From positions 62,001 through 126,000 of the forward strand of contig NW_026856818.1 of assembly GCF_026571515.1 (NCBI RefSeq): 64,000 nt of DNA. The letters run 5' to 3'. Below the pieces are notes generated by a model. The model did not search any database and had not been told where the DNA came from. It saw nothing but the letters and a program-made list of their open reading frames with translations. This document shows, piece after piece, positions 34,633 through 60,083 of the stretch (within the stretch, counting starts at the first letter, position 1; each line of letters opens with the position of its first letter). A program made the position numbers and the translations under genes. Origin of the DNA: Ruditapes philippinarum. Lineage: Eukaryota.

Positions 34633-34950
34633 TCTTACATTTTTTTATTTATTTTTGTTTACTTTTATTATTTTTTTTCACTTGAGCTATGTTTCAAGCG
34701 TTGTTTATATTATATGTATAACTACATTTAAATATGTATTATTAACCCTCTTATATGTATCCGGCCTCTTGTTTATTGAGATATGAAACTAAGTGTATAA
34801 ACTAGGACAAATTCCTATTCGGGTTGTAACATCTTGCTTTGTTTTATCGTTAAACAAATAACAAAATGTAATCTCTCACCTCATAAACAGTGACCACTTA
34901 AGTGCGTCTGCACTCGAGAAAAAACATTTCTTATTTAAAAGGAGAGAAAT

Positions 34951-36114
34951 ATGGATATTAAAGCAGTTGCTTGTTATATTGTCACTGCCGTTACCTTTGA
35001 AATTGTTTCTGCGAGCTTGTACGACCCACATTTGTTTCCAGGTCATGATAAAGGACCTTTTTTCGAAGGGTGGTACATGCGGGTAACCGATCAGTTCTCA
35101 CGTGACAGTTTTGGATTGCTATTCGGAAGTGTTTTGCCATCTTCTTCGAGGAATGTTTCCGGTCCTTTGGTGGTCGCTTCTATCTTGCTTCGACGTTGTG
35201 ACGTAACGAGTGATACATGTAAGTTAATATCAATAGATGGAAAGTTTACAACAAATGATTTAGATATTACAGTAAATGGACAAGACGTTACGACTGATCC
35301 CGACAAAGGGTCGCCACCTAACTTTAAATGGCAGGTTAACAACGGAACGCATGGCGGATTTTTCGAACAAAATGGCGGGAAAACAACTTTTAATTTCAGA
35401 CTAGGAGATTTAACATTAAGAGGTGAGGCAAAAGATCCGTGTTACTGGAATGCAGCGGGAACTGGTCCGGAAGGATGGCTGATAAACTTTCCACTTCCGC
35501 TACATTGGTTCGTGTATAGTTTGAGATCAGAGCTTACTTCCTATGAGATTCAGAATATAACCAGTGGCACCGTGACTAAAGGAAACACAGGCGCCGTTCA
35601 TTTGGAGAAAAATTGGGGGAAATCATTTCCTTCAGAATGGATTTGGTCAGAGGGCATTTCATTTGACAAAGACAACGCAACATTTGCCTTGTCTGGTGGA
35701 TTAGTTGACTTCTCATTTATTTCCGTAAACGCTTATTTGATTGGTTACCGCAACCAGGCGCAAAACTTGTCCCTAGACTTCAGACCAGACAACAGTATAA
35801 TCAACGCACGAATTAACGGATGTTTGGGATATGTGAACATGTCTGTCAACAGTTTAATGTATAAAATGGAGATCAACTTGGCAGCGCCAGTCTCAACGCT
35901 CAGTTCATGTCTGTTAGGACCGGAAACACGTGGCTTCGTTCGCGCATGCGTTGAGAGTTATGATGCCGAAGCAACAATTACAGTGTCTAAGAGGAGTTTT
36001 CTCCCTTTTCAATACAACATAGTGGAACAGAAAACGTTTAAAAATATTGCTCTAGAATTTGGAGGCCATAATGTGTGCAACGATACATGCTCTACAACCG
36101 TATCTTCCAGGTGA
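34951..36114 (+). CDS. Tocopherol cyclase (VTE1)-like protein with signal peptide, single coding exon, 387 aa
   Basis: Family motifs PFFEGWYMRV, GPEGWL..PLPLHWFV and HLEKNWGKSFPSEWIW. Hydrophobic N-terminus ending VSA-S; AATAAA at ~36219 and ~36293. Confidence 0.85.
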   Translation: MDIKAVACYIVTAVTFEIVSASLYDPHLFPGHDKGPFFEGWYMRVTDQFSRDSFGLLFGSVLPSSSRNVSGPLVVASILLRRCDVTSDTCKLISIDGKFTTNDLDITVNGQDVTTDPDKGSPPNFKWQVNNGTHGGFFEQNGGKTTFNFRLGDLTLRGEAKDPCYWNAAGTGPEGWLINFPLPLHWFVYSLRSELTSYEIQNITSGTVTKGNTGAVHLEKNWGKSFPSEWIWSEGISFDKDNATFALSGGLVDFSFISVNAYLIGYRNQAQNLSLDFRPDNSIINARINGCLGYVNMSVNSLMYKMEINLAAPVSTLSSCLLGPETRGFVRACVESYDAEATITVSKRSFLPFQYNIVEQKTFKNIALEFGGHNVCNDTCSTTVSSR

Positions 36115-40433: not shown

Positions 40434-41236
40434 TTGCTTTTTTTATAACTTACATCTATTGATTGATGATTCTTTTTTTTATCAGTTTAAACATACAATG
40501 TATGTGAAATGCATTTGTGAAAGATGTTTTCAAACTGTTTGTATTTTTGTAATAAAAAATATTTATTTTTCAATATTTTTTTGTTTGTCAAGACTTTGAC
40601 CTGAAAATTTTCACGGAGTATCTACATAGTTTGCTATATATCACATAAGTAATTACACTTTATAACTAGCGTGTTGAAAACAAGACAAGTTAATTCAATT
40701 TGAAAACATGACAGATTTTGGGTGTTTTATTTCTTTTTAACATAGAATAAGCGTGCATGAGTGCGGGACGGACGGAATTCATTGATTTAAAGTTCATTAT
40801 ACTAAATTTGACGCAATACATTGAATCTCATAATTATGGTAATCCGTTCTGTTGCAGTTTCCGGCATTCATTACGTAGAGCAATAAAAAAAGGAAGAAAA
40901 AAAGAATATGATATAAATGGCTTATTTCAAACTTCCATTTCCTAACACCAACTTATCAAATTGAACTTGTGTGTTTCTTGTGTCTGTTTTATGTATTAGT
41001 CAAATGTAACCCGCTCCATTCCATGCAAGGACATTGCAAGACCTATGTGGGAAATATAACACGTCCCCACTCCAAGGGCAGTGCGAGGGATACCAAGAAA
41101 ATGCAACCCATCCCCATGACCATGATTTACGCTATCGCATCTTCTCGGCTTTTTCCGTCAAACTTTGGATAAGAATGATAGCCGAGATGTTCCGATTGGC
41201 TTATATATATCTGAACTGTGAAGGTACGTTATGCCT

Positions 41237-41546
41237 AGCCAGCCCGCATAGCTCAATCGGTTAGAGCGCGAGACTTGTTATCTCGACATTGTGGGTTCGA
41301 TTCCCGGGCTGGCCAACTAAAATTACTAATCAGTCTTTCGGATGAGACTTTAAATCGAGGTCCCGTGTATGGGTGCTTAAACACTTGGCATGCTAAAGAA
41401 CCAGGAGAAGCTTCTGAAAGTGGGGCACCTTTCTGTATCTGTAATTGCACTATCCTCCAAAAATCTAAATGACTAATACTCTTCTGGAGGACTCGCCCAT
41501 ATGGGCAACTGGTGGCGAGTATAAATAAACGCAAATACACACACAC
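41237..41546 (+). mobile_element. tRNA-derived SINE with V-domain-like core
   Basis: A box tagctcaatcgg, B box ggttcgattccc, TGT anticodon-like loop; ctttcggatgagactttaaatcgaggtcccgt resembles the V-SINE domain; (CA)n tail; TSD acgttatgcct. Confidence 0.85.
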
Positions 41547-41561
41547 ACGTTATGCCTCCTT

Positions 41562-41901
41562 GGGTCCTCTGTGGCCGAGTGGTTTAGGTCGCTGACTTGA
41601 GATCACTGGTCCCTCACCGCTGTAGGTTCGATCCTCACTTGGGTCGAAATCGTTCATGTGAGGAAGCCATCCAGCTGGCTTACCGAAAGTCGGTGGTTCT
41701 ACCCGGGTGCCCGCTCGTGCCTGAAATAATGCCCGGAGGGGCACATGGGGTCTTCCTCCACCAATAAAAGCTGGAAAAAAATCGACGAAAAAATCTCGGC
41801 GGGACGCTCTAGGATGGCCCGACTTGAGTGTACGGTCGCCCATATGGGCTTTCCGGCGGCGACCTTAAATAAACGCATTAAAAAAAAACAAAAACAAAAA
41901 A
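41562..41901 (+). mobile_element. tRNA(Ser-like)-derived SINE with Meta/RUDI-like core
   Basis: A box tggccgagtgg, B box ggttcgatcct, long variable arm; body gtgaggaagccatccagc..gtcggtggttctaccc..cttcctccacca; A-rich tail; TSD acgttatgcctc. Confidence 0.85.
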
Positions 41902-42612
41902 ACGTTATGCCTCAGAAATAAATAAATATTTAATTCTTGAGAAAGGTCAAACATTAGTTTTATAACGCTAATACTACTTTGAGAGCACGTTACATGTTAA
42001 CTGAATAAAATAGCGCTTAATGTAAAATAATATGTCATAAAAGCAGTTAAAATGTAAATAAAACGGTATTTTGACTTTCATACAAAATACTAAATTACTA
42101 TAAAATTTAATGTTCTAATTGCCAAAAAGCAAAAGAAGAAGAAGACAGTTTAGGTAATTTGCAATTGAGTAACTTGTTGGAAACTATAAAAATAAGATTA
42201 AAGCATTTCTGGGGCATAATGGGCCTTTTATTGGAGAGGTCATCAGACCTCTCCATAGTGTTCAGACTGATTGCTGGCGGCATCCATTTTTGCGTATCTG
42301 ATTTGCAGTGAATGAATATCATTTTAAGCGTAAAAGCATTAGGAGCAGTCTACAAAAATTGTTTTGCGCATGCCCCGTTTCAAAACACGGCTTAACTTAA
42401 ACGAAAAATTAACATCGAAATGAACAAATCGGTACATAGAAAAATCGGAAAATATCATTTACGTTACTTAACACTAAGTGCATGGATGTTTCATTCCGTA
42501 ACTGTATAAATCGATTACCGTATTGTTTTCTGAATAACGTTTTACTATTTCATGTTCTGATAAATAGTAACAGTGAACATTATAGCTACAATATCACCAT
42601 GCACTATATATA

Positions 42613-47350: not shown

Positions 47351-47750
47351 AGGCACATTATGCCTAAAAAATTTTTTTTTAATCTTCTTAAGAAAGGGAA
47401 AACAAGAAATTTATAGTGTTTAGAAAGTATGATTTTTTTTATTCTTAAGAAAGGGCAATCATGAGTTTTATAATGTTTAGAAAATGTTAGATGCTTTTAG
47501 AAAATGTTAGATGCTTGTTACCTGAAGAAAGTAGTGATCAATGTGAAATTATTTGTCATAAATGTATCAAAATGTAAACAAAGTACAAATAAAAATTTAG
47601 TATTTTGGCTTCCATTCAAAATAATAATTTTACTAACGTCCAAAAAGTAACCGACGAACAATATGGTCCAGGTAACTGTACTATAATGAGACAAAATTAA
47701 ATAGCTTTTGAGAAATAAAGATAAACGCATTTCTGAGGCATAATGGGCCT
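47351..47750 (+). mobile_element. TTAA-flanked Kolobok-like MITE
   Basis: TTAA|aggcacattatgcct ... aggcataatgggcct|TTAA. Confidence 0.8.
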
Positions 47751-52464: not shown

Positions 52465-55400
52465 CTGTTTTCTTTTCCTACTTAAAGATTTACTTGGTAG
52501 TTTACGTGGACTGCTGAAAGGGTCGTTTGTAATGTGTAAATTACTTTCTTTGCTCACTGTGCGTCAGGTTAAAGGAACTCCACTGAGGTTTATAAGCCTA
52601 AAATCATAAAATTTTAATTTTCCACATAGATAAACATGAGCACTTGTCAGCAGAAGCAGAATATTAATTGAAAATAACCAAGAAATATAGAAGAAATACA
52701 TTAAACATCATATGTTTGTGCTATTCTCAGTCCGATTTGAGTGAAAAGCGTTTAAATGCTTTTCAATTTTGGTCATTTTTCACTATTATAATAATTATTT
52801 TAGAAAAAAAAACGGAGCAAGCTAATGATCTGAAATTTTGCACATAAGTTATTAGTATAGATCGACATCAAATGGAGTAATAATCTCAAAAAATTATTTC
52901 CAGTCCCGTCATGTCAAAAAACCTCAGTGCAGTCCCTTTAAGGGTTTAATAAATCAAACATATTTTAACATAACAGTCATGGACAGCGTCCCTCTGCAGG
53001 ATGGACTCTGATGGGGATGGAAAAACTAACGGAGAAGAACTTGGGGATCCAAATTGCAACTGGAAACAAGGGGAGACCCCTGAAACAAGCTTAGGATTGT
53101 CCCATCCTGGTGTGTAAAATTTTCATATGGCTATAAATGAGTATCTGTTGTTGTTATTCTTATTGTTGTTGATAATGTTGTTTGTGTCAAAAATTACATT
53201 ATTAATTATTGCTTCATATTTTAAAGGCTCAATCTATCGAACTGCAATTTACATTCTTTTTAAATTTTGGGATAAGTTTTATGAACTCCCGATGGAACCT
53301 TTAGAGAGAAGAAATATAAGAGAATTACAATGACAAAAACTGATTTAGATCAACAAATTTGATGTCACTTTTATAATTCTAGAAAGGTTACATTACCAAG
53401 TGTAAAAGGTTTACACACAAGTTTTACTCATACAAGTAACTTGTCAATTATGTCAAAAAATACGTAGGAATTTATACTTCATAATAAATCATGTCTTTGA
53501 TTTAAAATTAAAAAAAACAACCAACAAAAAAAAAACAAAAACATGCAACACCTTTGTTTATCGATGTTATCAGCGTCATTGTTAACTAATGAAAATCCAC
53601 GTTGTATACTTACGGTATTATAAATGATAATAACTAGTGACAATATATAAATATATATCTTATATTCCAGGTTTCTGTGAGCCAGCCGATTCGGCTGAAT
53701 GCAGGGATAAAAACCAGAATTTGGACTGTTCAACTACGGAGTTCTCATGCGATGCGCTGTCCGACCCAGGTCAGTAATTTTCCTTTTTTACCAAATAATT
53801 TACTTATATAATGTGTATTGTAAGCTAACAAGATAAAATTGGAGATGTAACGGTTCTGTTTTATCATACCAATGTATTTTGTTAAGCCCTTTCCACCATA
53901 GTTTTTGGCCAAATTAAAATGTATGGGTGTTCAAAACTTCAAATTTTTACGCCCGAGCAAACGGAGCAACCCGAGCCGGAACAAAACCGTGGTGGCTCTT
54001 TTATAAGGTTAGTTTGACTCTCTTTGATTGGCATATTTGCAACCATAGATAGCCGCGGTTTCGAATTATTCACACGGAGGGAGCATGCATCTTGCTTTCC
54101 CTTTATAGCTGAGTGGCTCCAGATGATCCAAAATATTTCATGCAGATCAAACCTAAGATTTTGAGAAAAGTTTCAAGTAATAATTTTGCAGTATTTCTCA
54201 ATTTATCACTTTATTTCTACAGCGTGACTAATGCAGGACGGGATATTTTGCATATTTCTGGCCACTTTGGTAATTTATGTGTATTGTAAAAGTCTTTAGC
54301 AATGTGTAAATTACTTACTTTGTTCACTGCACACTTCTTTAATTTTAAATACATTTTCAAAATTTTCATGAAAACTGGCATGAATCAGGAGGCATGCTGC
54401 TTTAATGTTTGATTGAAAATCTTTTTAAACTGGTGGTTAGTTAAGCATATACATGTTTTATATAATACATGTATGTACTTTATCGTTATCCAAGCTGCAT
54501 AGAGATCGTTATCTTGAACGACTATTTGGATGTTGTCTATCTGAACAATAATTCATTGTTACAATCTGACTAAAGCTCAGATCTACTTATCTCTTTTCAG
54601 TAGATCTGATCGAAACCGTTTCTGTTTCACCTTCTTTATAATTCGGATTTCCCGAGAAAGCTATTTTAAGTCATGCAATCAAACCATGTTTTACATAGGC
54701 ATTAGAAGAAACTAGTATTTAAATACCGTTATCAGTGGAAGTTAAACAAATTGCTGATTCTTTTTTTCTTTTTTGAGAAGAAAAATGTTTGAAGTATTTT
54801 TAACAAATCAACTTTAAATAATAGAGTATATTTTTAATTGGCCAGATTGTTTTGCCAGTTTACCTGTCAGCTTTATGGGCAACGCCATATTTGTACTCAA
54901 AATCATTATCTGCTCAGTTCTGCTTTTCCCAAGGTTAAATTTAGAAACCACATTATGAAAGCTCGCTGATGATTGGCTGTGTTGAAGATCACCAGAAACT
55001 AGTTCGTATTTGGTTACGGTTAGATCTAATTGCGGAGCATTATTTTGAGCGGATTTTAATTAGATTGCTTATTGTTATATATTTACAGACATTGAAAGTT
55101 ACACAGTCCGACTTGACGACACGGCTGTCCCAGCAGAAGAGACAACCTACATTTGCCAGATAATGGACATCCCTAGCGATAAAGATTACCATCTTGTCGC
55201 GTCACAGCCTTACATTCAAAACATCGACGTTATGCACCACATCTTATTGTACGGCTGTACCGACAGTGGTAGGTTAAATAGATTATATAATCATGTTTGC
55301 ATATAGATAGCAATACAACGGAGCCCCTAAGGTGACATTTTCCACACTTTTTTGAAAATGTCACCTTAGTGGCTTCGTACAATACCGAAAAGCGGCTAAA

Positions 55401-58400
55401 ATATTTGTTCAGTGTAACAGCTCATATAGCAGGATAATGCGGCAGCAATGTAGGCTCACCACTTTTCAACGATTATTTGGGCAATGCATCAAAGGGACTC
55501 CACTGACATGACGGGACTGGAAATAATATTTCTGGATTAATGTTCCATTTGATAAAGGTCTAAGCCAATAACTGGTGTGCAAAATTTCAGAACAATTGCT
55601 AACTCTGCTTTTCCAGAAAATACTTTAATTCTGGAAAATGACCAAAAATTGAACAACGTTGCAACGCTTTTCACTACTTAAATCGTGCTAAGTCTATTAA
55701 ATACGATTTTCAAAATGAATTTCTTAATTATTTTGTGTATGTGTTTCTGTTAAGTGCCCCTGAAGGTGATATAGGTAAGAAATTCAAATTTTATTTTTTA
55801 GGCTTTTGACCCTCAGTGGAGTTCCTTTAAGACATACCAACGACTAAGAAAAATATTATCGGAGTTTACATCACCTTCGTTAATTATAACATGACATTAA
55901 TTTCAGCACCAATTACCCCTGAAATGCGTAGCCCTAATAAATGCTTCATGAACCGATTGTCTGGCTGCGAAGAGATACTGGCTATCTGGGCTGTAGGGAG
56001 TAATGGCTTGTGTTACCATGAAGATGCCGGGGTCAAGTTGGGAAAGACAGGATTTAAAACAGTTCTGCTCGAGGTTTGTCGACTCCGAAATAAAATTTAA
56101 TGTAGAAAAAAAAATAATTATAGAGTTTCTTTTCAAATTGATAATTAATCTTTTGGTAAAATTTTAAAAAGGGGTTTGAAGCGAAAAGGGGGACGAATCT
56201 TTATGATTTTATTCAACATACTCGTTAAAAAATTCAGTACCCTTTGATTGAAAACTTTTAATTTTTGTCTTTTTTGTGGGGTTTAATTTTCCCAAACTAC
56301 ATCTAAGGTTTGAATTTTTTGTTCCGAATATAACTTTCATATACTATTATTGCAAATTTTATTCAACTCGTCAATTCACTAAGTTCAGTTTCTCTTATGT
56401 ATCTTTTAATACAACAGATGCACTGGAACAACCCTATGTTGGTCGACAATTACAGGGATTCATCGGGTATTACCCTTCACATGACGCCTAATCTTCGCAA
56501 ATACGAGGCCGGCATGATGATGATTGGTCAAACGTCATTAGTAATTCCACCCGGACGTGAACTATACACCGCCAACTCCACGTGCAGCTCTGAATGCACG
56601 AGAAAGAAAATGAACGGAAATATTTTTATTGCGGGGGCTTTCAACCATATGCATTATCTAGGTATATGTTTTTCCTTAAAACCCAAAACATTCTTTCCAT
56701 TGCACCGGAAAGTCATTTTTTCTGATCTTCCCCCAAAATAAATAAAATGATGCTTGCCTAGTAAATTGCTCGAATGAGTTCAAACATTGGTTAGCTCGGA
56801 TGAAAAACTACATGTAGGTCACAGGAGCTAAAAAATAGAAAATTCTTGTTAACTCTCTAGTGGATACTGTTGTTATCCAAATATCCTGAAAATTGGTCTG
56901 CACGTATGTTTTGATGATTTCTTGGTCAAGTCCGAATATTGGTTACATGTACATGGGATCAAAAACTAGGTCACACTGCCCAAATATGGAAAAACCTTGT
57001 TAACACACTAGTGGTCACATTTTTGACTCAATTGTCATCAATCTGTCTCAGGATGATTGCCTAGTAAATTGATCGAATGAGTTCAAACATGGGTCATCTC
57101 TGATGAAAAACTAGGTCACAGGAGCTAAAAATAGAAAAATCTTGTTAACGCTGTAGTGGATACTGTAAGTTGTTATCCAAATATTCTGAAAATTGGTCTG
57201 AAAGTTTGTTTTGATGATTCGAATATGTGTCACCTGGGGTCAAAAACTAGGTCACACTGCCCAAATATGGAAAAACCTTGTTAACACACTAGTGGTCACA
57301 ATTTTGACTGAATTGTCATCAAACTTGGTCAGGATGTTTGCCTAAGTAATTTCTCTGATGAGTTCGATTGGTCAGGTGAGCGATCCAGGGCCATCTTGGC
57401 TCTCTTGTTAATAATCTTAACTAGGTAAATCTTCGGTATCCAACCCGGTTACTTAAGACAGTAAAGAGCACGTGTTACTCCCAATTTTTATATTATTTTA
57501 TATTCTTTACCAGGTAAATCAGCGTTATCCAGCCTGGTTACAAGGGACAACAAAATACACGTTCTAGCTGATGATCCAAACTACAGTTATGATAGTCCAG
57601 AGTTCTACATGTAAGTTCAACCAATATGTTTCTATATTTAAAGGCTAGATTCGAAGTATTTCCAAATTTTATAAGAGGTTGATCGAAAGTACAAAATAAT
57701 ATAACTATTAATCTATATCTAAAAAGTGAGATGATTTTTCTCATTTTTACGCAGGAAGTCAAAGACCGAGGCCCGGGCTTTGGCTTGTCCGGCTTTAGAC
57801 AACAAGTATATATTTAAAAGGAAATCAAATAAAGAAAACAATTAAAATATATATTGACTTCTATACCAATCAGTGAAATTTCAAGTGCCATATCTGATAG
57901 GGCGCTGTCATTTTCAATGTAACTCTATAATAATAGGCTGAGTATTCCGATAACTGAACGATCGCAATTTAATCTTTGAGGTGTTACGAGTGAAAACGGA
58001 GGAGGGTAATGAAATAACGCATGAAACCTTCAAAACAGAACATGTAAAATAAAAATGAACGATTATTTTAATCGAATTCCCAATTCATAGGTTTGCCTTA
58101 TTTTATTTTAATCGACTTTTGTCTAATTTCATATTACTAATGACGTGATTTCTTTTTCTTTCTTTTTTTCAAAATAAAGATTTGACGAGCCAGTCGAAAT
58201 GGAACCTGGTATGGAACTTAAGTTACGGTGTGATTTCAAGTCAACTTCTCGCACAAAGACGACGTTTATGGGGGAGGCTACCAACGACGAAATGTGCTTT
58301 GCATTCCTAATGTACTACCCGAAAGAAAACTGGATGGGACAAGGTGCGTACATCGGCAGTTAAAGGCACATTATGCCTCATAAACAAATTCAATTTCAAT

Positions 58401-60083
58401 TCTTAAAAACCGTAAAAATGATTTCTATAATGTTTCAATTATGGCTTTAGAGAATGTTAGGTGCTTGTTACCTGATGACAAAAGCGATAAATGTGAAATA
58501 TTTGGCACTAAAGTAGCAAAATGTAAGCAAAGTACTTTTTTGACTTCCATACAAGATACCATAGTTCACTGTAACTGTACTTATAGTCAAGAAAGCAACC
58601 GATGAAAAAAATTCAGGGAATTGGCCAATGAGTAACTTTAAGGATAAAAAATAAAAGCATTTCTGGGACATAATGGACCTGTAAGATAATTACATAACGT
58701 TCCTTTCGGTGTAGCTGTGGCCATTTGACGTGAGTATGCTATGAAACAAGAATGGATGGGTCATGTAACGACAACTAGTATTTGTAAAACTTCTATTTTG
58801 TTTAATGTAACAAAACCGTTTGAGAACTTGTGGCGGCATGCCCGAGTGGTTAACGTGCCTGACCAGTCTAATGATCGCTAGCCGCATGGGTTCAAATCCA
58901 GTCAGGGACAAGTCGTTGTTTCCTGGGGCGAGAAACATTAAACTCATTTCTCAGTACTGGTTGGTTCCAGGAACGGATTCGACAGTGTGTCTATAACCTT
59001 TAAACTTCCTATACAATCGAACTAAAGTAAATTCTGTAGAAAACAAAAATGTTCGCAAAAACGTTCAGTCAAATGTTTGGTTCATTCCAAGGACCCTATA
59101 CAGCACAATAATAAGGTTGATATTATTTCTATACAAAATGAAATGTATATGAAACTTATATTTATTATAATAGAATGCGTTTCGCACGGCACAATCGACT
59201 CCTGCGAATGGGAAGATGGTTATGCGGACGGCTGTGACCTGAATAAGTTTGGAAACCCAGCGTAAGTAAATTTAAAAAAAAAATGACTAAAATCTTAAAT
59301 ATATATATTCTTATAGCTTATGAGTGAATAACATCTTCCTTTAAGTTATGATTCCCCAAAATGCACTACCTCCGCTTTGAGAATATGCTGGGACTACTGC
59401 CAACTGCATTGAAACGGCGGGGTGCGGGTTCAAACCCCAGAAGGGGCAAAAAAAAATTATTTCTTTTTTTAAAGTACTTTCAGCTGACTTTGACTCGAAA
59501 ATAATAGTTTAAATAAAAGAGTTATCTAATATATGTCATGTGATCGTGTTTATGCTATTTTTGCACGTGCTCGCTTTATATGTCGCTGTAGATGACGTAA
59601 GCTTCCTCACGCATGTAAATGTGCATAGCTAGCATATAATTATTATGCGTGTCAGTTATATGGTGCCTTTCATTTTCTATATCATGTATGTCTTTATCTT
59701 AATCATTATATAAATTCATGCACAGAGATCCGGAAAATATAGAGCGGTATTCGCTCTTGGAACAGAATTGCAAGGTCGGACTTTGTTTGGAAGAATGCAA
59801 GCCAATATTGCGGGAAATTTTTCAGCATCCGTGCTATGCCCCTGGTCTTTACAAAATGTTCCGAGGTATGTCTCTTGACAGTACCGAAGACCAGTCAATG
59901 AAAGTTACCTTACTTGAGCACTATAACAAACTGGATTCATGCGCTGCTGAACTGGAAAGAGAAAAGTGTAACGGAAACGGAAATGACGGATGGAATAGAC
60001 CGGAAATAGATGGTGCTCACGGAATTCATTTGTCTTCAACCGTAACATTGTTAGTTACATCTTTACTGGTTTATTTCTGGTAG
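50138..60083 (+). CDS. Temptin-domain plus DBH/MOXD1-like copper type II ascorbate-dependent monooxygenase with GPI-like C-terminus, ~575 aa. Exons 50138-50146, 50252-50440, 52977-53109, 53671-53769, 55089-55268, 55907-56073, 56418-56661, 57514-57610, 58180-58343, 59174-59261, 59726-60083
   Basis: All introns are GT-AG and phase-consistent (1728 nt). Signal peptide MFRLLLVLGLLHMGSC; temptin motifs IPNG..C..WQGVGH..GGGERNSFGLDF and WT..LC..DSDGDGKTNGEELGDPNCNW..SHPG; Cu ligands MHHILLYGC, EMHWNNP, HMHYLG, DEMC..YYP; hydrophobic terminus. Confidence 0.92.
52394..52465. repeat. (GTT)n(GAT)n microsatellite
   Basis: Direct reading. Confidence 0.9.
52573..52937 (+). mobile_element. TTAA-flanked Kolobok-like MITE, second family
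   Basis: TTAA|aggaactccactgagg ... cctcagtgcagtccct|TTAA. Relatives at 55493-55826, ~49250-49515 and ~27848 onward. Confidence 0.8.
55318..55379. mobile_element. 62-bp minimal MITE consisting only of TIRs
   Basis: acggagcccctaaggtgacattttc / gaaaatgtcaccttagtggcttcgta. Confidence 0.65.
55493..55826 (-). mobile_element. Kolobok-like MITE, inverted relative of 52573-52937
   Basis: agggactccactgacatgacgggactggaaata ... cctcagtggagttcct|TTAA. Confidence 0.75.
56745..57408 (-). mobile_element. Helentron-like element with a tandem array (~280-300-bp dimeric unit, about 2 copies)
   Basis: Terminus caggtgagcgatccagggccatcttggctctcttgtt (reverse complement begins aacaagag plus a palindrome); repeated aaaaactaggtcac..cttgttaac.c.ctagtgg. 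Confidence 0.75.
58364..58680 (+). mobile_element. Kolobok-like MITE copy (47351 family)
   Basis: TTAA|aggcacattatgcct ... gcatttctgggacataatggacct. Confidence 0.75.
58832..59030 (+). mobile_element. tRNA-derived CORE-like SINE
   Basis: tgcccgagtggttaa A box, ggttcaaatcc B box, core agaaacattaa..agtactggttggttccaggaacggattcga. Confidence 0.75.

Follow-up and report, generated by a model that had tools for sequence, protein, structure and literature searches.

A TATA-box rule covering about half of the insertions was found for two SINEs, A and B, and for an RNase H LINE lineage of the Ruditapes philippinarum genome. The motif TATAWAWR lies near position -22 from the left edge of the target-site duplication, on the 5' side only, at ~40-60% of the A, B and 5'-truncated LINE sites, as shown statistically. 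Site specificity is real, but it resides 22 bp upstream, in the TATA box, rather than in the duplicated sequence. The explanation that we favour as a whole, with slightly better than even confidence, is that a TATA ruler acting through host TBP led one nick to be cut twice at the locus described below, for B and then for A.

The locus lies in a window of 64 kb (the whole stretch of DNA analysed; window positions are used throughout and the features given are on the + strand). The sequence ACGTTATGCCT occurs exactly at 41226, 41547 and 41902, with no further exact match in the window; when two mismatches were allowed, 19 matches were found against a chance mean of 13.8, so only the three exact copies count. 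They frame two SINEs in the order TSD-SINE-TSD-SINE-TSD, confirming the triplicated target described in the first-pass annotation, and this target-site triplication (TSD-element-TSD-element-TSD) was found here and at a second locus, L076 (L numbers denote our loci). The first duplication copy (41226..41236, an exact match) precedes SINE A (41238..41546), which has a tRNA-like head, a Deu-like body, a hairpin tail and an (AC)n end. The second copy (41547..41558), of 11 bp for A and 12 bp for B, precedes SINE B (41562..41901), which has a tRNA-like head, a V-domain body of the BivaV-SINE1 type, a hairpin tail and an A-rich end. The third copy (41902..41913) is again exact and is followed by the remainder of the host MITE. 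The duplication of SINE B is ACGTTATGCCTC, of 12 bp, correcting the initial annotation. The proposed targeting anchor is a TATA box, TATATATA, at 41202..41210, with a second register at 41204; the duplication has its left edge 24 bp downstream of the start of the first register and 22 bp downstream of that of the second. This box did not figure in the first account of the locus.

The target is located in the left terminus of an old TTAA-type MITE (41222..42226, ~330 bp without the SINEs), as originally described, which is 65-69% alike to copies at 47351 and 58364. A TTAA duplication and purine-starting terminal repeats, which we take to be traits of Kolobok-type MITEs, are present at 47351 and genome-wide and are degenerate in the 41222..42226 copy. 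The putatively LINE-derived 3' hairpins of SINE A (41491..41520) and SINE B (41834..41864) were delimited by their fold and by their likeness to a LINE 3' end and to a sister LINE subfamily, respectively. The SINEs differ in heads and bodies but have this tail in common, as first noted: both contain TCGCCCATATGGGC (at 41493 and 41836) and GGCGA..TAAATAAACGCA (at 41511 and 41855, 83% alike). The outer stem is the same in the two tail folds, with a C-G pair in A and a G-C pair in B at its base; the fold z values (-1.75 and -1.54) are modest on their own. Elsewhere in the window, an intronless open frame of 391 aa (34939-36114, + strand) matches tocopherol cyclase (PF14249, E 4.5e-19), and its presence in an animal genome is possibly due to horizontal transfer. 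A gene for a copper type II monooxygenase, dopamine beta-hydroxylase-like, has exons at 55064-59262, also on the + strand.

By sequence likeness, SINE A is classed as Deu-like and SINE B as V-type, which replaces the labels first given to them (V-like for the first SINE and Meta-like for the second). In a comparison made by eye rather than by scored alignment, the body of A is like BivaMD-SINE1 in its 3' half and has no Meta stretch; this 3' half is described as Deu in the available text of PMC4824008. Positions 41657-41730 of B match the BivaV-SINE1 rows in the supplement of the same paper (again by eye, not by scored alignment). A Meta domain was looked for by eye, and neither SINE body resembles the post-head stretch of the BivaMeta/BivaMD rows. 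The head of A was detected as a tRNA by ARAGORN and Rfam; A- and B-box-like letters are visible in the head of B, yet only the head of A is listed by these programs. The published BivaV-SINE1 (RuDe) tail (PMC11481361, supplement file 4) matches not B but SINE M of the same genome, which has the head and body type of B and a different tail. SINE B is best regarded as a tail-swapped relative of BivaV-SINE1 and not as that family proper.

Genome-wide, 217 exact matches to the head of A and 329 to the body-tail of B were found. When each SINE was compared with the majority of 29 close copies, A differed at 6/298 letters (2.0%) and B at 7/316 (2.2%). The A/B hairpin tail is absent from the readable supplements of PMC11481361 and PMC4824008, and both SINEs may already be present in the FASTA library of the former.

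A LINE sharing the SINE tail, which the first-pass annotation had proposed to look for, was found by a search for RNase H combined with longer flanks. Its 3' UTR is long (~2 kb) and has as its terminus this hairpin followed by (AC)n; the tail was beyond the reach of the first 50 RNase H loci and was reached with the longer flanks. The LINE 3' end is 81% alike to the tail of A over 59 nt (E 1.6e-8 when 20 loci were searched), and that of a sister subfamily is 77% alike to the tail of B over 53 nt (E 6e-5). This likeness makes a LINE-SINE partnership of A and B with the lineage likely and, together with the common target motif, supports the earlier suggestion that both SINEs use the machinery of one LINE lineage. 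Tails of the exact pattern numbered 322 for the LINE and 1,002 for the A/B SINEs genome-wide.

The partner LINE shows the traits of the I group, namely an APE endonuclease, a reverse transcriptase and an RNase H in ORF2 (~1,275 aa; PF14529, PF00078 and PF00075 by Pfam) and three CCHC knuckles in ORF1 (584-593 aa). ORF1 has a long C-terminal half with short motifs that are conserved within the lineage and missing from the control LINE, and homologue and atlas searches with ORF1 returned only unnamed retroelement ORF1-like clusters and three relatives. The three subfamilies of the lineage are 70-73% alike in ORF2; compared with three further RNase H LINE families in the genome, their ORF2 is only 27-34% identical.

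Eleven insertions consist of only 34-41 bp plus the tail (L243, L255, L256, L262, L267, L270, L305, L309, L312, L314 and L319). All of them are truncated at the hairpin base of the LINE and keep full duplications, which suggests that reverse transcription often stops at the stem. At L301, together with L203 and L222, three LINE copies lie head to tail, two of them truncated and one with both frames open. A LINE with a TBP-like gene of its own was considered and rejected: TBP-like frames are multi-copy, but they lie in a different element and match no LINE locus. These frames are intronless and divergent, of ~181 aa with two PF00352 repeats, and were found at L385-L389 and on ~14 more contigs. 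In the five loci read they are 92-100% alike and directly follow an integrase-plus-chromodomain-like frame. The mobile element carrying the TBP-like gene looks like one of the Maverick/Polinton type.

A first pass covered 159 SINE copies that retain their 3' end; for 104 of them an exact duplication of at least 8 bp was called, and these fell into 83 independent site clusters. Counted from the left edge of the duplication, TATAWA starts were most frequent at -22, with no such peak at the mirror position. The discovery set comprised 103 independent sites (52 A, 26 B and 25 LINE). Copies without a 3' end or without an exact duplication of at least 8 bp (55/159) were left out before counting, as were surplus sites in a shared host repeat (one per repeat was retained), two LINE sites with short flanks, and the duplicate loci L398 and L459. 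Duplications of the A/B/LINE family range from 8 to 17 bp, with a mode of 11.

Matches of at least 7/8 to TATAWAWR starting between -27 and -17 were present at 62 of the 103 discovery sites versus 55 of 515 background windows, and perfect 8/8 matches at 29 versus 4, respectively. The start was at exactly -22, the mode, in 31 sites, and no good box was found in ~40% of the set. When hexamers in -27..-12 were counted without a consensus, TATAAA (27), TATATA (25) and TATAAG (11) exceeded AATAAA (4) and TTTAAA (2); the scarcity of the last two indicates that the signal is not mere A+T richness. At the mirror position downstream, the box was found in 2/52 A and 0/26 B sites. Among LINE copies, 12/27 have the TATA box, including 7 of 16 fragments longer than 100 bp, which excludes an effect of the SINE promoter.

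The strongest single test of the distance comes from a second TTAA-ended MITE, of ~400 bp, which carries, close to one of its ends, an octamer-like word and then a TATA box. This MITE is a hot spot with 15 of 127 A/B copies (its loci include L007, L029, L042, L046, L048, L073, L078, L086, L099, L105 and L152), and no occurrence of its motif was seen in 461 kb of control loci. Ten of the 11 SINEs with a called duplication are located exactly 22 bp from the first T of the TATA box. The sequences cut are different, and a fixed downstream landmark lies 18, 20 or 31 bp away, so the constant 22 bp indicates a ruler measured from the TATA box. Both A (L029) and B (L046 and L099) were found at the identical base in different copies of the MITE.

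Control families showed little of this signal. The TATA box was found in 1/17 SINE M copies by duplication and 1/25 by head, in 0/15 SINE W copies (head-anchored) and in 0/8 copies of the control RNase H LINE, all small numbers. SINE M is older (pairwise identity 0.89 versus 0.96-0.99) and is a weaker control for that reason, since motif decay could account for part of the contrast.

The TATA signal was replicated, more weakly than in the discovery set, in 60 new A and B loci taken in contig order and held out from discovery. Strict matches (at least 7/8) were present at 10/27 of these sites, with only 1/11 in one B batch, and the head-anchored count (14/39 versus 26/117 in their own background) was not significant (P=0.096). 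The discovery matrix, applied at -24..-20 to 25 held-out sites versus their flanks, gave P=5.9e-6; the same matrix gave P=0.44 for SINE M and P=0.25 for the control LINE. Both the -27..-17 window and the matrix had been chosen on the discovery set. The direction of the matrix was only moderate (forward 68 versus reverse 47 of 128, the reverse window being wider).

These data can be accommodated in a mechanism of five steps. SINE A, SINE B and one RNase H LINE lineage would be mobilized through the 3' hairpin that they are shown to share, and would often be inserted ~22 bp downstream of a TATA box, as the statistics show. The first nick would be made at the left edge of the duplication and the second cut ~11 bp further on, with the upstream DNA regenerated, as in established target-primed reverse transcription. 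A later element would re-cut the left duplication and push the earlier one downstream, as shown at L076 and as we infer for the present locus. Taken jointly, these four steps are highly probable. In the fifth, the LINE machinery would be positioned through contact of an element protein with TBP or with a complex that contains it; to this identity of the box reader we assign about even chances.

The motif shows the degeneracy pattern of TBP, being equal to the TBP consensus including its degenerate positions. Targeted boxes have flanks richer in G+C than background boxes (0.42 versus 0.29), and a weak initiator-like excess was observed for YCANT (11/62 versus 8.4%; P=0.018, uncorrected, for one of four patterns); the initiator pattern YYANWYY was not enriched (P=0.69). 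By analogy, the extra C-terminal half of ORF1 and the precedents of TRE5-A and Ty3 may be counted in favour of host TBP. A structure prediction of this ORF1 half with a bivalve TBP core (score 0.01, mark 0.34), made without alignments and with an uncertain partner fold, speaks neither for nor against such a contact. Measured from the first T of the TATA box, the two cuts fall at ~22 and ~33 bp and bracket the position of the Pol II initiation bubble. The duplication length proves nothing about the bubble, because the control LINE also makes duplications of 8-13 bp. The bubble's upstream edge is set by TATA, as stated in the available text of PMC5055313.

The alternative that survives best is that ORF2 or ORF1 of the LINE reads the TATA-like sequence directly, with no host factor, the likeness to a TBP site reflecting DNA with a minor groove that is easily read or bent. 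The very exact spacing would suit such a reader, as would the moderate directionality, and the targets need not be real promoters: many targeted sites lie within MITEs, and the hot spot described above is a MITE end. R2, which recognizes an upstream motif through domains of its own, also counts for direct reading. In the ingi clade, subclade-specific upstream motifs shared by the passengers are ascribed to the element endonuclease (available text of PMC3820030 and PMC5814959). Against direct reading stand the agreement with the TBP consensus at its degenerate positions as well, and the weak promoter-like context. Moreover, Pfam finds in ORF2 only the domains that are also present in the non-targeting control LINE, and it is in ORF1 that the extra C-terminal half is located, with motifs that the control lacks. 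We consider direct reading possible but less likely than not.

Flexible or nucleosome-free TA-rich DNA that positions a distant cut without being read by a sequence-specific factor would be compatible with the sites that have no good box, with the moderate direction and with the general A/T-richness of -22..-16. Such an effect of DNA shape or chromatin is improbable given the single-base precision at the hot-spot MITE, the lack of enrichment of other A/T-only hexamers and the lack of signal in the control families of the same genome.

Returning to the reading through host TBP, a more specific version can be put forward tentatively, at somewhat less than even confidence. At TATA boxes, an animal LINE lineage would use the C-terminal half of ORF1 to dock onto TBP of the host, or onto the preinitiation complex, and would cut across the future transcription bubble; its copies and passenger SINEs would land at the start site with a ready-made TATA box.

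The stack itself follows from the geometry of the reaction. During target-primed reverse transcription, the first (bottom-strand) nick falls at the duplication's left edge and the second cut at its right edge, which means that all DNA upstream of the first nick is rebuilt. Neither the TATA box nor the spacer is disrupted by an insertion, and the same nick was therefore likely cut twice, in agreement with the initial proposal and with the second triplicated stack (TSD-A-TSD-B-TSD), at L076, where TATAAAAA starts at exactly -22. At L076, the duplication of A includes the 5' letters TAG of B, where the native flank reads CTC, indicating that B was in place before A.

At the 41226..41913 stack, the geometry suggests that B was likely inserted first and A second. 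The box in the tail of A lies at -27 there, and the duplication of B has no (AC) letters. The sequence TATAAATA in the tail of A was considered as an anchor for B and rejected, since it lies 27 bp from the middle duplication and the right duplication of B lacks (AC). Divergence did not separate the ages of A and B (2.0% versus 2.2%). As to the empty or single-insert alleles proposed as a check in the first-pass annotation, one allele without the stack was found: one contig, from one of four runs, joins 41219 to the right flank, with both SINEs and ~17 bp including the duplication absent. This allele does not resolve the order of insertion.

SINE stacks are not rare, with a SINE head found within 90 bp after 6 of the 188 tails examined. 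Further stacks at L034, L054, L019 and L020 include B-B twice in one host repeat and A before another SINE-like sequence. An A-linker-B heterodimer at L006:1500-2160 was inserted as one unit, as it lies inside a single outer duplication; its linker repeats the duplication of A copies in a host repeat (L080, L144, L156, L161, L167 and L168).

The heterodimer lends some plausibility to the formation of the stack in one event, from an A-B dimer RNA or a template jump, as does the lack of a T4 terminator between A and B at the present locus; a dimer, however, would not have a new target sequence as internal linker, and at L076 A copied the 5' letters of B, which requires B to be already present. 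Unequal recombination at duplications has been suggested for SINE arrays (available text of PMC11481361), but unequal crossing-over between A and B alleles would require two independent insertions at the same base, again needing the TATA ruler. We regard an origin by one event or by recombination as very improbable.

Recognition of the duplicated sequence or of the terminal repeat of this MITE, the weakest of the alternatives, can be practically dismissed: the target does sit in the left end of the MITE, and a different MITE does hold an insertion hot spot, but that hot spot tracks its TATA box and not its end. Duplications of the 29 other best copies of A and the 29 other best copies of B are unrelated, and no base preference was found inside the duplication in the discovery set. 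A genome-wide search for TTATGCCY followed by an A- or B-type head returned three junctions, against 3,388 intact ends of this MITE; one is the present locus and the other two are SINE M copies whose flanks are not MITE ends. The enrichment in the MITE terminal repeat anticipated by the first-pass annotation was therefore not seen, and the MITE is a bystander target, not the specificity determinant. Of that interpretation, the common LINE tail and the likely double use of one nick stand, and the targeting of the duplicated word or terminal repeat does not.

For most animal APE-type LINEs, site choice is ascribed either to a short motif right at the nick or to a fixed repeat gene. L1 and Alu re-use a motif at the nick itself (TT/AAAA), whereas the A/B nick has no motif and is anchored at a point 22 bp upstream. 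For Alu, target site triplication was reportedly described by Lee in 2015, and the present case is similar in its two tandem SINEs framed by three target copies. Bivalve tRNA SINEs with Nimb (I superfamily) partners are similar in having a LINE-derived tail common to different SINE superfamilies, and the shared tails measure 35-61 bp with 72-95% likeness in the available text of Martelossi 2024 (PMC11481361) and Nishihara 2016 (PMC4824008). TSD-(SINE-TSD)n arrays, some of mixed families, are also described in bivalves and ascribed to recombination in the accessible part of PMC11481361. The main texts of the mollusc SINE papers PMC11481361, PMC4824008 and PMC4758252 contain no match for 'TATA' or a target rule.

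Position-specific integration is shared with TRE5-A of Dictyostelium, an APE-type non-LTR element whose ORF1 binds TBP, Brf1 and Bdp1, and with yeast Ty3; both integrate at a fixed distance from a TBP-containing complex (PMC5911963, available text). Those systems need tRNA or 5S genes (TFIIIC/TFIIIB), whereas the anchor of A, B and the LINE appears to be a bare TATA box, and the flanks inspected around the insertions are mostly MITEs and unique DNA. TRE5-A, as described there, lands upstream in reverse orientation; A, B and the LINE land downstream in the same orientation, and in an animal.

The trypanosome systems ingi/RIME, L1Tc/NARTc and TSIDER, as presented in the accessible text of PMC3820030 and PMC5814959, are similar in combining an RNase H LINE with short passengers, in a motif upstream of the first nick common to both, and in tandem copies whose duplications are shared. 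The LINE studied here and its passengers likewise have in common a conserved motif that precedes the first nick. The motifs of those systems touch or approach the nick and are not TATA boxes, whereas here the 8-bp box ends ~14 bp before the nick; their duplication is fixed at 12 bp, unlike the variable lengths observed here. Among the listings returned by open-access full-text literature searches, no TATA-anchored targeting by an animal LINE or SINE was found. SINE stacking, tails shared across superfamilies and triplication are already known; targeting by a TATA ruler in an animal LINE appears to be new.

If true, a LINE lineage measuring 22 bp from a TATA box would represent a new targeting rule; it would account for SINE stacks and hot spots with no need of recombination, and insertions at the TATA promoters of genes would be predicted far above chance. 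It also offers a handle on how a LINE chooses its first and second cuts, with natural controls in the same genome, namely the non-targeting sister LINE and the tail-swapped SINE. Each SINE would also be placed ~33-36 bp downstream of a TATA box, a position that could promote transcription of the SINE itself. If docking on TBP is also true, the lineage would be a promoter-seeking non-LTR retrotransposon with single-base precision.
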